Below the pieces are notes generated by a model. That model worked only from the letters and a program-made list of their open reading frames with translations. It searched no databases and was not told the DNA's origin. A stretch of DNA of 64,000 nucleotides, from positions 4,305 through 68,304 of the forward strand of contig JBNAVN010000005.1 of the NCBI GenBank assembly GCA_049700315.1, read 5' to 3'. The stretch is from a bacterium. Lineage in GTDB: Bacteria; Hydrothermota; Tepidihabitantia; SM23-42; JAOAFX01. The position numbers and the translations under genes were made by a program. Positions 48,647-53,946 of this stretch are shown here, one piece after another (the stretch's first letter is position 1; each line of letters begins with the position of its first letter).

Positions 48647-49225
48647 TTATCTCAAGCCGGTTATGCTCAAAAAAACCAGACTTATCAGTGCGAGAATTGA
48701 CAATTCCATAAACAATCGCCATGGTCTGGATATTTTTTTGATTAGATAGATCCGTTCTTTAATTGTCATAAAAATCAATATCACAACAAGATAACCCAAA
48801 CCTGACGCCAAAACAGATATTGTGGTATCTAAAAATACAAGTTTGCGATTGATGTTCAGAAATACTGTACCATAAATTGCATAATTTGTATAGAAAAATT
48901 CAGGATATTTATCAAATAATATTGCAAGGTAAGGATAGGATTGATTCATTGCAAATCTTATATAATGAATTGTAAGCCAGGTGATAAGAATAAACAGGAC
49001 AATTGCTACATGTGTGAAGTTCAGCGGTCGCAATAAGAAATAAAAAATAAACAGATTTAACCAGGCGCTGATGAGCATAATAACGATTAGAATGATACCT
49101 ATCATAAGGCATTCTTTAAGATTTACTGCATACAATATGAGGGGGCAAATACCAAGCAAAGTGTAAAGAACGATATTACTGCCGATAATATGATCTACGA
49201 GTATTGCAAGAAGGTTATTTGCCAT
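48647..49225 (-). CDS. rnfA: RnfA-like membrane subunit (second cluster Cys replaced by Tyr)
   Basis: LLGICP and TNYAIYG at the canonical 88-aa spacing; IKERI; position in the rnf operon. Confidence 0.8.
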   Translation of the reverse strand: MANNLLAILVDHIIGSNIVLYTLLGICPLILYAVNLKECLMIGIILIVIMLISAWLNLFIFYFLLRPLNFTHVAIVLFILITWLTIHYIRFAMNQSYPYLAILFDKYPEFFYTNYAIYGTVFLNINRKLVFLDTTISVLASGLGYLVVILIFMTIKERIYLIKKISRPWRLFMELSILALISLVFLSITGLR

Positions 49226-49796
49226 CGGTCTTTTTCTTTACCAATTCAAAACCTAATAATACAAGTGCGGTCATCAGAAATGCACCAGCAGGGGCATTTA
49301 TAAACAACAAAGCTTTCGATGCCATATCAGGACTCAGTATGGGTTTGTTAACTAATGTGCCCTGTCCCAAAATTTCTCTCAAAATGCCTATAACGAAAAC
49401 AATACAGACAACACCAAGCCATTTCTTTGCAGCGGCAAGCACAAATCTTAATCCTGAATTCTGAGTATTGTTGTATCTTAAACTATACAGCACAAAACTA
49501 TTGATAGCTATCAAAGATATAAATACATCTAAATTGTTGCAGAGTTCAGGAAGATGATATGATAATACCTGCTTAATAATAGTAGTAATCGTACCAGTAA
49601 TAATTATCAGAACAAATGTTCTTGAAGGTTCATTCAAGAATTTAGCAAACAATAAGAAAACTATTCCTGACAAAAATAGTACAATCAATGTCACAATACC
49701 GATGCCCAGGGCATTCAATGCTGTATCAGTTAGGGCAATTATGGGCATAACACCAAGAATAATCAAGAATCCATTTTCTCTTTGATTTTGGATCAT
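49215..49796 (-). CDS. rnfE: RnfE-like membrane subunit (both cluster Cys absent)
   Basis: LGVMP, NALGIG, INS, LREILGQG, PAGAF; ATGA overlap with rnfG. Confidence 0.82.
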   Translation of the reverse strand: MIQNQRENGFLIILGVMPIIALTDTALNALGIGIVTLIVLFLSGIVFLLFAKFLNEPSRTFVLIIITGTITTIIKQVLSYHLPELCNNLDVFISLIAINSFVLYSLRYNNTQNSGLRFVLAAAKKWLGVVCIVFVIGILREILGQGTLVNKPILSPDMASKALLFINAPAGAFLMTALVLLGFELVKKKTDGK

Positions 49797-50698
49797 TTCA
49801 GATAATCTTTGAATTTTTTGATATTTTTTTGAACGCTTTTGATCAAGGCACATGATGAAATTGTCGCGCCAGTTATTGCGTCAGGTATACCAGTTTTGAA
49901 TTTATCAAGAAATTCATGTTCTCTTATTTGTTCACCAATGCCTTCGGTTTCTTTTGAATAGGTAATGATAATCCGTTCAATTGAACCATCCTTTCGTAAT
50001 CCAAGAAGGTATTTGATTGTGTCAAGATAGCCAAATGTCTCACCTGAAAACACTATTCCCAGTGTATCAGAATAGGCAATTGCATACCACAGTGTATCTT
50101 TTATTACTTCAGCGAAATTTCTGGCATCAGCAAAGATTTCCTTTTTTATGTCCTGGATTTTGCCCTGATTTAACACCGATCTGTATCTTTCCATTCCTTT
50201 CTTGATTCCTTCACAAACTGCCTTTGAAGAAATAGTCGCACCGGTTATTGCATCAATTTCACCGCCTTCGCTCTTTAATGAAATATGTGATATTTCTTTA
50301 CCGACAAATTGATTTGTAAAAGCCGCGTCTCTGACCTTTGAACCAAGTCCCTGGGTTTCTTTGAATCCTTCTCTCTTCCCGCCGATTCTTATTCCAGTAA
50401 TCTTGCCATTCACATCAACACCTGCAGTTATCGGAATGACACCGGCATAGGCCCTTGTCCAGACTTTGAAGACGATTCCTTCTAAGTTCTTCAATGAATC
50501 ATATGCCTGCCACAGAGTTTCAGGAAGAACCGGCACAAATTCAACAGCCTTGATCACTGATTTCAGTTTGCTGAGATTAGTGTTATCTTCAGTCTGCGCA
50601 ATCAACGGCTTCGTTTGAATATCTGCTATTGTGAGTATCAAGATACTACATATTATGCTAAACAACACAGGGGCTGTTTGATTCAAAAAATTTTTCAT
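49793..50698 (-). CDS. rnfG: RnfG-like membrane-anchored flavoprotein with two FMN-binding domains
   Basis: N-terminal TM segment; two copies each of ETxGxG and DAITGATISS. Confidence 0.88.
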   Translation of the reverse strand: MKNFLNQTAPVLFSIICSILILTIADIQTKPLIAQTEDNTNLSKLKSVIKAVEFVPVLPETLWQAYDSLKNLEGIVFKVWTRAYAGVIPITAGVDVNGKITGIRIGGKREGFKETQGLGSKVRDAAFTNQFVGKEISHISLKSEGGEIDAITGATISSKAVCEGIKKGMERYRSVLNQGKIQDIKKEIFADARNFAEVIKDTLWYAIAYSDTLGIVFSGETFGYLDTIKYLLGLRKDGSIERIIITYSKETEGIGEQIREHEFLDKFKTGIPDAITGATISSCALIKSVQKNIKKFKDYLK

Positions 50699-50709
50699 TG
50701 AAACCTCCC

Positions 50710-51696
50710 TTATTTAATTTTTGGTTGCCACAATCTTCTATTAGTGAGTTTGTCAATCAGTGGCGTTATGAGATTCATCAGGAGTATCGCAGGTGTCACC
50801 CCTTCAGGATAATGTGAGTAATGTCTGAAAATTGTTGTGAGTATACCGCAGCCAACTCCAAATATCCATCTGCCGTTCTTCGTTATTGGAGTAGTAACCC
50901 AATCCGTTGCCATAAAAAAGATCGCGATCAGGACACCGCCAGTAAATAATTGAAAGATTGGATTAATACTATTGGGCATAACGAAATTTAATAATAGAAA
51001 ACCAACAATATAACCTGATACAATTCTGTAGTCAATGATTTTCAGAAAAAGCAATGCCAGGCCACCAATGATCAAGGCAATTTTGCAGGTTTCTCCTATT
51101 GAGCCTCCAATCATGCCTGAAAACAAGGTTCTCAAGAAGTCGGGTGAATTGAATCTGTTAATTATGGTCTCGGTATTACCATAATACGCAGGATTTTTCA
51201 AGATTGTCAGTGGTGTTGCCTGACTGATCGTATCAATTCCTGAAAAAGAGCCATAGGATGGTGTACGCCATGCTGTGTTCATTATCTGTGGAAAACTTAG
51301 AGTCAAAAACGCCCTTGCAGCAAGTGCGGGATTGAGATAATTAAAACCAAGACCGCCAAATACCTGTTTCACCAGTATGATTGCAAAGCCCGAACCAATG
51401 ATTGGCACCCATAACGGAACCCCCGGCGGCAGGCTCATTGCCAATAATAGTCCAGTCAAAATCGCAGTGCCATCACTTATTGTTATCTTCTTTCCGGCAA
51501 GATATTCAAAAACTGCCTCAGATGTTGTGCTTGATATAACACTGAGAAAGACAATCAAGAAAGCATATGTTCCGAAATTCAATATGCCGAAAACCATTGA
51601 TGGAACGAGTCCAAGACATACTGCATAAACTGCTCTATTTGTACTTAGATTTGAATGAATATGGGGGGGAGCAGATACTACAAGGAGCTCATCCAT
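50710..51696 (-). CDS. rnfD: RnfD membrane subunit
   Basis: KQVFGGLG..NPAL, SQATPL FMNylation motif, GGSIGET, FFMATD..TTP, YPEGV. Confidence 0.92.
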   Translation of the reverse strand: MDELLVVSAPPHIHSNLSTNRAVYAVCLGLVPSMVFGILNFGTYAFLIVFLSVISSTTSEAVFEYLAGKKITISDGTAILTGLLLAMSLPPGVPLWVPIIGSGFAIILVKQVFGGLGFNYLNPALAARAFLTLSFPQIMNTAWRTPSYGSFSGIDTISQATPLTILKNPAYYGNTETIINRFNSPDFLRTLFSGMIGGSIGETCKIALIIGGLALLFLKIIDYRIVSGYIVGFLLLNFVMPNSINPIFQLFTGGVLIAIFFMATDWVTTPITKNGRWIFGVGCGILTTIFRHYSHYPEGVTPAILLMNLITPLIDKLTNRRLWQPKIK

Positions 51697-52969
51697 TTGA
51701 AAATCTCATTTTTGCATATTTAAAGTAGTGAACAAGAGGAATATAAGAAGGGCAGACATAGGCGCAGGAACCACATTCAATACACTCATTCAATCCTTGT
51801 CCAAAGGCATCATCATAATTGCTCTGCGTTATCCTGGCAAAAATTGTCTGGGGTATGAGATGCATTGGACAGGCATCAACACATTTTCCGCATCTTACAC
51901 ACCCCTTTTCTTCTCCATCGTTTATTGAATCTTGAAATACAATACCATTGATAGTCTTTATGACAGGTGTGCTCATAGAAAATTGAGCAATACCGGTCAT
52001 AACACCGCCAAAAATAATTTTTTTTACATTGCTTTTCAAACCGCCACAAAACTGGACGATATCACTTATTGGAGTTCCAATTTTCACCAGGATATTTTTT
52101 GGTTGTTTTATTCCATTTCCGCTTACTGTTATTACCCTTTCAATCAGTGGTTTGCCATACTTTACCGCCTGGAAAATAGCATAGCATGTGCTAACATTCT
52201 GTACAAAAACACCAATATCCATTGGCAATCCATTTGCCGGAACATTTTTCTTTAATATTTTTTTTGTCAATAAACTTTCAGCACCCTGGGGAAATCTATC
52301 CGGCATTATTTTTACTTCTGCACCTTCTTTTTTTAAGAGTCTTGCTGCACCTTCATAGTTTTCTGAAATCGCAAAAACAACTCTGGGGACATTAAGAATC
52401 TTTTGAACAATTTTCGCACCTTCAATCACACAGACCGGATATTCAAGGATGATGTGATAATCCGTGGAAATATTGGGCTCTGATTCACAGCCATTGACTA
52501 CCAATATATCCAGTTTTTTTTCTACAGCATAAGAGATTTTTGAATGCGTAGGAAAACCACCACCTCCTAAACCGACAATACCTGCCTCTTTTATTTTTTC
52601 AAGAAGTTCCTTTCTATCAAAAGACTGGTAATCAACATTGATAAGTGCCTGGTCCCAATCCTCGGAATAATCAGTTTCAATAATACAACACAATGCCCTG
52701 CCAAGCGTGGGATGGGTATAGGATCTTATATCTATTACTTTGCCTGCAACACATGAATGAATACAGGCAGATTGATTTCCGTTTGAATCTCCAATCTTTG
52801 TGCCTATTTTTACGATATCACCAGGCTCTACGACAGGAGTAGCGGGTTTGCCCTTGTGCTGACAAAAAGGAATATATACTCGTTCCGGAATAGGCATTAC
52901 TTCAACGGGAAGATCAAGAATATTTTTTTGTTTTCTCAGGTGAACTCCGTCGCAAAAATTTCCAAACAT
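51689..52969 (-). CDS. rnfC: RnfC NADH/FMN-binding 2x[4Fe-4S] subunit
   Basis: GIVGLGGGGFPT, NGCESEP, PQGAE, CVRCGKCVDACP, CIECGSCAYVCP. Start set at ATG 52969, 7 nt after a TTGACT-16-TATAAT promoter (52977-53004). Confidence 0.92.
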   Translation of the reverse strand: MFGNFCDGVHLRKQKNILDLPVEVMPIPERVYIPFCQHKGKPATPVVEPGDIVKIGTKIGDSNGNQSACIHSCVAGKVIDIRSYTHPTLGRALCCIIETDYSEDWDQALINVDYQSFDRKELLEKIKEAGIVGLGGGGFPTHSKISYAVEKKLDILVVNGCESEPNISTDYHIILEYPVCVIEGAKIVQKILNVPRVVFAISENYEGAARLLKKEGAEVKIMPDRFPQGAESLLTKKILKKNVPANGLPMDIGVFVQNVSTCYAIFQAVKYGKPLIERVITVSGNGIKQPKNILVKIGTPISDIVQFCGGLKSNVKKIIFGGVMTGIAQFSMSTPVIKTINGIVFQDSINDGEEKGCVRCGKCVDACPMHLIPQTIFARITQSNYDDAFGQGLNECIECGSCAYVCPSYIPLVHYFKYAKMRFSNG

Positions 52970-53019
52970 TATTGGTATTATACATGATTTTGGCACCAAG
53001 TCAAGTTTCACATTTCCTC

Positions 53020-53047
53020 TTGACTTTTATCAAAATATGTATATCAT
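53020..53047 (+). promoter_or_regulatory. Promoter divergent from the rnf operon
   Basis: TTGACT-16-TATCAT. Confidence 0.6.
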
Positions 53048-53079
53048 ATATTATGCTCACGAGAAGAGGAGGTGGCATT

Positions 53080-53340
53080 ATGCAAAAGACAGTTGGAGTT
53101 CTTCTGCTTGCCCTGATATTCATTGGTTGTGGTCCAAAATGGGCAAAGAAGGAGACGATGGATGCGCTTAATGAGGCGCGCGCTGCCCTTCAGGCAGCTG
53201 AGGCAAAAATAGGTGAACTTGAGACTGAAAAGGCACAATTGCTCTCTCAAAAGAATGCCCTTGAACAGGAAATTGCAAATCTTTCTGCTGAGGTTGATGC
53301 ACTTCAGACCAAGATAGATACTCGCTGCAAGAAGAAATAG
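53080..53340 (+). CDS. Small coiled-coil lipoprotein (86 aa precursor)
   Basis: Lipobox LIFIG-C, Ala/Leu heptads, C-term RCKKK; AGGAGG RBS. An in-frame leaderless ATG at 53053 is also possible. Confidence 0.8.
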   Translation: MQKTVGVLLLALIFIGCGPKWAKKETMDALNEARAALQAAEAKIGELETEKAQLLSQKNALEQEIANLSAEVDALQTKIDTRCKKK

Positions 53341-53349
53341 GAGGTAAAA

Positions 53350-53946
53350 ATGAAAAGGATACTTGCCATTCTATTTGTTTTGTTCCTGATTCCCACAGCA
53401 ACGGGCTTTGCCCAGGAAAAATTGACTGAGGAACAGGCGCAGGCTGAACTGCAAAATGTAAGAGAAAAACTTCAGCAGGCAGAGGCAAAAATTGCTTCAC
53501 TCCAGTCTGAGATTGCAAACTTGAAGAATGAGATTGCCAATCTTGAGACAAGGCGTGAAGAACTGAAAAGTAAACTCGCTGAATTACAGGAAGCCTGGAA
53601 AAGATGCCAGTATGGAAGATATAAAGTTAATGAAGGCGACTGGCTTTCAAAGATTGCGAGTATGCGTAATGTATATTGCGATGGCAAAAAATGGCCAATG
53701 ATATATGAAGTTAACAAAGATAAAATTAAGAATCCAAATCTCATATATCCGGGCTGGGTCTTATTGATTCCCACGCTTGACGCATATACTGTAGTGCCTG
53801 GCGATTGTCTTGGCCTTATCGCATCCTATCTATCAATTTACTCTGATGCCAAAAAATGGCCAGAGATCTATGAAGCAAATAAAGGCAAGATCAAAGACCC
53901 GGACCTGATTTTTCCGAAGCAGGTTCTTACTATCCCGCACGACTAA
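53350..53946 (+). CDS. Secreted coiled-coil protein with two LysM domains
   Basis: Signal peptide, heptad region, YKVNEGDWLSKIA..W..IYEVN..I.NPNLIYPG and YTVVPGDCL..IA..IYEAN..DPDLIFP. Confidence 0.88.
   Translation: MKRILAILFVLFLIPTATGFAQEKLTEEQAQAELQNVREKLQQAEAKIASLQSEIANLKNEIANLETRREELKSKLAELQEAWKRCQYGRYKVNEGDWLSKIASMRNVYCDGKKWPMIYEVNKDKIKNPNLIYPGWVLLIPTLDAYTVVPGDCLGLIASYLSIYSDAKKWPEIYEANKGKIKDPDLIFPKQVLTIPHD

Follow-up and report, generated by a model that had tools for sequence, protein, structure and literature searches.

What could a second covalently bound flavin do in a subunit of the Rnf complex that ordinarily carries one? The question is raised by a stretch of 64,000 nucleotides, hereafter the window, from the genome of a WOR-3 bacterium (contig JBNAVN010000005.1 of assembly GCA_049700315.1, our genome G000; 2.67 Mb, 38% GC, 99.5% complete). 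Its rnf operon, ordered rnfC-rnfD-rnfG-rnfE-rnfA on the minus strand, encodes an RnfG with two domains of the type that binds flavin mononucleotide (FMN), whereas canonical RnfG consists of one domain with one FMN (review PMC12174285). We consider the chances somewhat better than even that the encoded complex works as an NADH:periplasmic-acceptor oxidoreductase, in which the second domain of RnfG is a second redox station and the only possible exit or entry for electrons on the periplasmic side. This reading builds on the architecture of the protein, the conservation of its motifs, phylogeny, the pattern of gene and ligand loss, and purifying selection.

The original prediction had described a 301-residue RnfG made of a transmembrane (TM) anchor and two diverged RnfG-type domains, and the open reading frame, Pfam, NCBIfam, the AlphaFold2 (AF2) model and Foldseek all bear this out. 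Both strings that it quoted, ETQGLG...DAITGATISS and ETEGIG...DAITGATISS, are present; the strand had to be corrected to minus, the plus-strand frame at the same coordinates being full of stops. The gene and its parts are the following:

49793..50698, minus strand: rnfG, 301 residues, two FMN_bind domains, stop codon at 49793-49795 (open reading frame, Pfam, NCBIfam, AF2, Foldseek)
50561..50698, minus strand: N-terminal TM anchor and stalk helix, residues 1-46 (AF2 helix 2-46; aligns with the TM/stalk of 7ZC6 RnfG)
50165..50551, minus strand: first domain (D1), residues 50-178, orthologue of the canonical RnfG FMN domain (identity and domain tree)
50234..50254, minus strand: flavinylation motif 1, DAITGAT, residues 149-155, acceptor Thr155 (ApbE motif match)
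50144..50164, minus strand: inter-domain linker, residues 179-185 (low model confidence at 179-181; least conserved part)
49796..50143, minus strand: second domain (D2), residues 186-301, a second RnfG-type FMN domain (alignments, tree, matches to RnfG models)
49862..49882, minus strand: flavinylation motif 2, DAITGAT, residues 273-279, acceptor Thr279 (ApbE motif match)

The ATG at 50698 is preceded by a good to strong ribosome-binding site (AGGGAGG). A Pfam scan for FMN_bind (PF04205), which the original prediction had proposed, returned two stretches (E 1.7e-25; 89.9 bits, cut-off 22), and TIGR01947 (rnfG) reached 106.2 bits against a cut-off of 102 when summed over two stretches of the protein. 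D2 by itself scores only 41.7 bits, and its best-scoring models are still those of RnfG. The two halves align with each other at 32% identity over 127 columns (E 3e-15), D2 being 12 residues shorter, with the gap immediately N-terminal to the motif. The AF2 model, computed from an input alignment of 66 homologues, has a predicted local distance difference test score (pLDDT) of 87 and a predicted template modelling score (pTM) of 0.61; it contains a long N-terminal helix (residues 2-46) and alpha/beta domains at residues 53-176 and 184-300, with pLDDT below 50 at residues 179-181 of the linker. Foldseek placed the RnfG chains of 7ZC6, 8RB8/8AHX and 9ERI first (TMt 0.62-0.73), then NqrC and then a domain of CbFMN4 (domain 1). 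The modelled protein is accordingly described here as a single N-terminal TM helix bearing periplasmic alpha/beta domains of the RnfG/NqrC fold.

The motif recognized by ApbE has been defined as D-x-x-[S/T]-G-A-[S/T] (PMC12052999). Both RnfG motifs match D-x-x-[ST]-G-A-[ST] perfectly, each domain closing with DAITGATISS (residues 149-158 and 273-282), and FMN is predicted to be attached at Thr155 and Thr279. As the original prediction had it, the two motifs are intact; they are also conserved. In the alignment of 66 sequences (46-68% identity), the acceptors T155 and T279, the preceding Ala residues (A154, A278) and the following Ser residues are invariant, and so is G277 of the D2 motif. Among the 120 best database homologues, every one of 272-301 residues, the D2 site reads [DE]-x-[IV]-[ST]-G-A-T throughout; the D1 site reads D/Q-x-[IV]-[ST]-[GA]-A-T and is mostly T-A-A-T outside the window's genus. 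In a model substrate, the change of Gly to Ala cut flavinylation to about half and did not abolish it (PMC12052999). D1 and D2 are conserved to about the same degree, the linker being lowest with a majority fraction of 0.31. The genome contains only two FMN_bind matches, both in RnfG, and one ApbE gene, at G000:C31:21638-22588. Because the RnfG domains are the sole FMN_bind matches and ApbE is single, the clients of ApbE in this organism are likely RnfG, with its two sites, and RnfD.

The original prediction missed the degenerate ferredoxin side of this Rnf complex, which likely gives D2 its meaning here. The genes around rnfG, which occupies the canonical place between rnfD and rnfE, are:

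51689..53011, minus strand: rnfC, 440 residues, NADH/FMN module and two 4Fe-4S motifs (Pfam, NCBIfam)
50710..51696, minus strand: rnfD, 328 residues, covalent-FMN Thr retained, ISQATPL (Pfam, NCBIfam, alignment)
49215..49796, minus strand: rnfE, probable start at 49796 (alignment to 7ZC6_E and 9ERI_E)
48647..49225, minus strand: rnfA (alignment to 9ERI_A and 7ZC6_A)

According to Vitt 2022, the membrane iron centre is bound by four invariant Cys residues of RnfA and RnfE, and cluster-ligand mutants of A. woodii lost ferredoxin-dependent NAD+ reduction and growth (Kumar 2025). In the window, both ligand Cys of RnfE are replaced (C26 by Met, C109 by Ser, in the alignment to 7ZC6_E and 9ERI_E), as is C113 of RnfA by Tyr (alignment to 9ERI_A and 7ZC6_A). 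Cys25 of RnfA is the sole one remaining of the four, and the complex does not have the canonical four-Cys [2Fe-2S] ligand set. The three replaced positions are likewise lost in each of the 12 genomes of the genus. The operon contains no rnfB. The only RnfB homologue in the genome (G000:C3:62104-62823; L005:973-1689), a protein of 238 residues, is encoded outside the window and spans residues 94-341 of the RnfB from genome G110; the absent part, residues ~1-95, comprises TM1 and the mobile N-terminal 4Fe-4S shuttle domain, from which the RnfA/E cluster is fed. Its Pfam matches are 4Fe-4S ferredoxin domains only (Fer4-type and LdpA_Fe-S-bd) with six Fer4 stretches, as in a soluble polyferredoxin. 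The window's complex is thus without a membrane-anchored RnfB bearing TM1 and the N-terminal FdI/B8 domain. The NADH half agrees with canonical Rnf, having the RnfC NADH/FMN module with two 4Fe-4S motifs (TIGR01945, 449.7 bits, cut-off 246) and the covalent-FMN Thr of RnfD (TIGR01946, 276 bits, cut-off 207), where ISQATPL aligns with VTTATPL of 7ZC6_D and the Pfam match is PF03116 only.

The state of RnfA, RnfE and RnfB differs among the three families (f1 to f3) of the window's order:

Family f1, genus g1 (the window's genus, 12 genomes): RnfA/E present, three of the four Cys lost in most genomes, all four lost in two; RnfB truncated (~237 residues)
Family f1, genus g2: RnfA/E present, very divergent; RnfB truncated (~237 residues)
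Family f1, genus g3: RnfA/E present with the four Cys, sequences diverging; RnfB truncated (~237 residues)
Family f1, genus g4: RnfA/E deleted; RnfB truncated (~237 residues)
Family f2 (G110, G111): RnfA/E present with all four Cys; RnfB full length, within the operon
Family f3: RnfA/E present with all four Cys; RnfB full length, encoded elsewhere

Truncation of RnfB is therefore common to all of f1, and f2 and f3 retain the full length. In genus g4, three assemblies (loci L051, G125:C11; L052, G126:C95; L053, G119:C17) have rnfC-rnfD-rnfG followed at once by the helicase and the class-V aminotransferase known from the window, rnfE and rnfA being cleanly deleted; the whole G125 genome contains no Rnf-Nqr (PF02508) gene. 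The g4 RnfG is still 300 residues long and retains both motifs. Because D2 and its motif are kept where the ligands are lost or RnfA/E deleted, the sequences indicate that the function of the extra flavin is independent of RnfA/E here and that it is kept together with the RnfC-RnfD half.

Two observations on RnfA/E and RnfB stand beside this series. Within the window's family, additional rnfE/rnfA/rnfB pieces of canonical appearance lie on other contigs of G116 (G116:C48:17776-18546) and G126 (G126:C261:372-2333), and either contamination of the bin or a second Rnf operon could explain them; they are absent from G000. In the cultured Clostridium muellerianum P21, RnfE (L013:8519-9142) has Ala (LVVVFAIILARAE) at the position aligned with Cys109 and one Cys in the whole protein, within an rnfCDGEAB operon that is otherwise canonical. 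The P21 protein may represent another incomplete ligand set or a paralogous operon.

Selection on the Rnf pieces was compared as the median pairwise nonsynonymous divergence (dN) in genus g1 and in family f3:

RnfG D2: 0.18 in g1, 0.24 in f3
RnfG D1: 0.25 in g1, 0.20 in f3
RnfC: 0.21 in g1, 0.07 in f3
RnfD: 0.28 in g1, 0.15 in f3
RnfE: 0.53 in g1, 0.10 in f3
RnfA: 0.43 in g1, 0.05 in f3
RnfG TM/stalk helix: 0.61 in g1, 0.23 in f3

D2 has the lowest dN among the Rnf pieces in g1, and RnfA/E evolve there about 5-9 times faster than in f3. With synonymous divergence (dS) saturated at ~1.5-2, the ratios are rough (dN/dS approximately 0.10-0.15 for RnfC, RnfD and RnfG; 0.22-0.27 for RnfA and RnfE), and the weight lies on the dN contrasts between pieces and families. 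These contrasts argue that in g1 the set of RnfC, RnfD and RnfG (D1 and D2) is maintained and RnfA/E are relaxed. The TM anchor of RnfG appears relaxed too; in A. woodii, the RnfG TM helix packs on TM1 of RnfB (Kumar 2025).

Where did D2 come from? Among 272 WOR-3 genomes searched, full-length two-domain RnfG is nearly universal in the window's order (f1, f2 and f3). Most other WOR-3 families have a single-domain RnfG of 175-195 residues in a canonical rnfCDGEAB operon, and further two-domain forms occur in families f10 (339-342 residues), f34/f35 (304-311 residues) and f4. In the domain tree, D1 of the order forms a clade within the single-domain WOR-3 RnfGs (support 95/90), with which it shares 42-54% identity; this nesting identifies D1 as the orthologue of normal RnfG. 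The D2 domains of the order form a separate, long-stemmed clade (98/87) that branches outside every D1 and single-domain RnfG. The branching order within this clade repeats that of D1, consistent with a single ancient gain followed by co-evolution. The window's D2 reaches 37% identity with WOR-3 RnfGs and 29% with the one Clostridium RnfG compared. The internal tandem duplication put forward in the original prediction is therefore only partly upheld: D2 matches RnfG models best and is nearer to WOR-3 RnfGs, but its long-stemmed clade lies outside D1 and the single-domain proteins. An old internal duplication with accelerated divergence is a plausible origin. D1 and D2 of f10 cluster together (100/99), which marks the f10 protein in this tree as an independent and much more recent tandem duplication, and the D2 domains of f34/f35/f4 are placed elsewhere. 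By the same tree, two-domain RnfG arose independently at least twice in WOR-3. We also considered D2 as compensation for the lost [2Fe-2S] cluster and rejected it, D2 being older than the loss of the cluster.

The original prediction had counted on tandem RnfG not being common in fully canonical rnf operons, and within WOR-3 this expectation fails. Two-domain RnfG stands together with RnfB in a complete rnfCDGEAB operon in G110, G111, G165, G167 and L068 (the contig carrying P0144), and all four RnfA/E Cys are present in G110, G111, G165 and G167. The f10 loci are L043 (G165), L044 (G167) and L042 (G159); the operon is complete in G165 and G167, and the G159 contig ends at rnfA. Such operons favour an explanation that we hold to be unlikely for the window, namely that D2 takes part in the normal Rnf cycle: with RnfA/E and RnfD each holding one of the domains, a flavin-to-flavin step would replace or shorten the swing of a single domain between [2Fe-2S] and the RnfD FMN. 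A single-domain RnfG shuttle must span a gap of ~29 Å down to 8 Å (Vitt 2022), the two-domain form arose and persists with full RnfB and four Cys in f2, f10 and f3 (RnfB elsewhere in the last) and in the RnfB-containing operon of L068, and at least two independent origins in the domain tree suggest a general benefit to Rnf itself. However, the window's genus is without the cluster ligands and g4 is without RnfA/E, and D2 with its motif is still kept, its dN being the lowest. D2 may originally have been a static relay between RnfA/E and RnfD within the Rnf cycle, and this is still a live rival for the canonical two-domain complexes; in the window's lineage, RnfA/E having lost their function, such a role is excluded.

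As an NADH:periplasmic-acceptor oxidoreductase, the window's complex might work as follows, with four inferred elements: that FMN is attached, which way the electrons run, what accepts them, and that no ions are pumped. RnfG would be a membrane-anchored periplasmic di-flavoprotein. Electrons would pass from NADH to RnfC (FMN, two [4Fe-4S]), to RnfD (riboflavin, covalent FMN), to the FMN of D1, to the FMN of D2 and on to a periplasmic partner. D1 would behave as an ordinary RnfG domain and swap electrons with the covalent FMN of RnfD, while D2, held on a short flexible tether and flavinylated at Thr279 by the single ApbE of the genome, would be the redox station that links D1 to the partner. 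D2 would be the only possible periplasmic exit or entry because the remaining chain is RnfC-RnfD-FMN(D1)-FMN(D2). A third FMN-holding loop has been described for the RnfG of C. tetanomorphum (Vitt 2022). We read the 12 extra residues before the D1 motif as part of this loop, and because D2 is without them, its flavin is probably more exposed than that of D1, as would suit an exit or entry site.

In evolutionary terms, a single gain at the root of this WOR-3 order would have added D2 to an Rnf complex that still had all its parts, and the ferredoxin branch would have decayed later in f1, where the RnfB anchor and shuttle domain were lost, the RnfA/E ligands were lost, and RnfA/E were deleted in a sister genus. 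The end function would not be that of a ferredoxin:NAD+ sodium pump. More tentatively, and with rather less than an even chance in our judgment, f1 might record a stepwise change from a reversible ferredoxin:NAD+ ion pump to a one-way RnfC-RnfD-RnfG 'flavin wire' that carries NADH electrons to the periplasm via two covalent flavins, without cytochromes or quinones, D2 being the pre-adaptation that made loss of the ferredoxin branch tolerable. The steps would lead from a full Rnf with two-FMN RnfG through truncated RnfB and lost cluster ligands to the deletion of rnfE and rnfA. If true, the flavin wire would be a new minimal route of extracytosolic electron transfer.

Several points weigh against the oxidoreductase reading. 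No periplasmic acceptor was found in the window's genome, in which no open reading frame contains more than one CxxCH motif and no Tat-exported redox enzyme turned up; the organism seems to be without cytochrome-based periplasmic electron transfer. There are no redox genes among the neighbours of the rnf operon, the neighbourhood of the ApbE gene contains nothing pointing to an acceptor, and none of the other ApbE-motif matches in the genome is convincing (an HdrA-like cytoplasmic protein, an aminotransferase and a beta-propeller). As a matter of speculation, the acceptor could be a small molecule, for example free flavins, humics, sulfur species, iron chelates or O2. Two-domain RnfG also occurs in fully canonical operons, and therefore D2 did not evolve for the reduced complex. 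A pTM of 0.61 leaves the arrangement of the two domains uncertain, the saturation of dS blunts the selection estimates, the truncated RnfB homologue could yet bind RnfC and thereby alter the picture, and none of the public sequencing runs searched for the rnf operon holds it.

That no acceptor gene for D2 was found in the genome would also suit a domain with no partner of its own, either as an electron buffer that takes the second electron from NADH, a two-electron donor, or as a structural brace of D1 on RnfD. The flavins of NqrC/RnfG-type domains are thought to stabilize the semiquinone state (Meheust 2021, PMC8238504). We regard this as improbable, since the flexible, poorly conserved linker and the predicted 'beads on a string' shape are more in keeping with a relay on a tether than with a rigid brace, and the strongly conserved, exposed motif region fits a working redox site. 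That the operon is a decaying relic whose second domain has no current function in the lineage, as the fast-evolving RnfA and RnfE (~5-9 times the rate of the sister family), their lost cofactor ligands and the truncated RnfB might suggest, is highly improbable given that all five rnf open reading frames are intact in the 12 genomes of the genus, that dN/dS is ~0.1-0.15 for RnfC, RnfD and both RnfG domains, and that the g4 lineage dropped rnfE and rnfA cleanly yet retained rnfCDG.

How does the oxidoreductase that we favour compare with known systems? The canonical RnfGs (C. tetanomorphum 7ZC6_G, A. vinelandii 8AHX/8RB8_G, A. woodii 9ERI_G) and NqrC share with the window's RnfG the TM/stalk helix, the periplasmic alpha/beta FMN_bind fold, the covalent-FMN Thr where the C-terminal helix begins and the gene position between rnfD and rnfE; unlike them, the window's RnfG adds a second complete RnfG-type domain with its motif. 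A survey of FMN_bind proteins by Meheust et al. 2021 (eLife, PMC8238504) predicted multi-flavinylated RnfGs in RNF clusters and proposed for them a second path to extracytosolic acceptors. The window's protein shares with them the presence of more than one FMN_bind domain in RnfG and the same proposed role. The original prediction that the second flavin extends the chain outward is thus the best available reading, but the idea was already in print. The RNF clusters of that survey, however, were defined by RnfB (K03616), whereas the window's operon is without rnfB and its RnfA/E ligands are dead. The full definition, a multi-domain RnfG with RnfB in the cluster, leaves the window outside and takes in G110, G111, G165, G167 and L068. 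WOR-3 has no mention in the main text of PMC8238504, and two-FMN RnfG is mentioned neither in a 2025 review of RNF/NQR (PMC12174285) nor in a 2025 paper on WOR-3 genomics (PMC12542636), which treats Rnf as a standard Na+ pump phylum-wide.

The NQR/RNF-like two-subunit systems (PMC8238504; Huang et al. 2024, PMC11334425) resemble our proposal in their one-way flow, itself proposed, from NAD(P)H via an RnfD/NqrB-type subunit to an extracytosolic FMN_bind protein. In those systems, the RnfD-like domain is fused to an NqrF-type NAD-binding domain (PF00175) and has no RnfD flavinylation Thr, whereas the window has a separate RnfC as NADH entry, keeps the RnfD Thr, and belongs to a genus in which the RnfA/E genes persist. 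The window's complex does not belong to that class, and the likeness is functional only. Listeria PplA and the stand-alone multi-FMN proteins (CbFMN4, PDB 8P2B) likewise have several ApbE-flavinylated FMN_bind domains in one extracytosolic chain, and flavinylation at several sites has been demonstrated for such proteins (PMC10339131). Unlike the window's RnfG, they are not Rnf subunits. Stand-alone proteins dominated our search of representative sequences, and the two best-scoring ones checked, P0121 and P0141, lie outside rnf operons. The two-domain matches of ~300 residues mostly had no name or a WOR-3 one, and occurrence outside WOR-3 is therefore taken from Meheust et al. 2021. One relative of 320 residues, P0241, is labelled 'Candidatus Woesearchaeota' at NCBI, which could reflect mis-binning or transfer to an archaeon.

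Two-flavin RnfG is thus not a new kind of protein. What the present locus adds is a comparative series of progressively reduced Rnf complexes, and this series links the second flavin to their NADH half. Taken alone, the two-FMN RnfG adds a large, well-conserved clade to a class that was predicted in 2021 and never characterised. The series amounts to a natural experiment, in which one two-flavin subunit occurs with a complete Rnf, with an Rnf minus the membrane iron-sulfur centre, and with no RnfA/E at all, and it supplies defined constructs for probing the function of multi-flavinylated RnfG. It also calls for caution, as the presence of an Rnf complex in WOR-3 reconstructions (e.g. PMC12542636) should not be equated with a ferredoxin-driven sodium pump for family f1.

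The remaining observations concern the setting of the operon. A UvrD/PcrA-type helicase gene directly follows rnfA. Upstream of rnfC on the opposite strand (52972-53946, plus strand) are encoded a small coiled-coil lipoprotein and a coiled-coil protein, which are not redox proteins. The longest open reading frame of rnfE would start at 49853, within rnfG; the likelier start is the ATG at 49796, which shares nucleotides with the rnfG stop (ATGA) and agrees with the starts of homologues. This overlap of stop and start suggests translational coupling of rnfG and rnfE.

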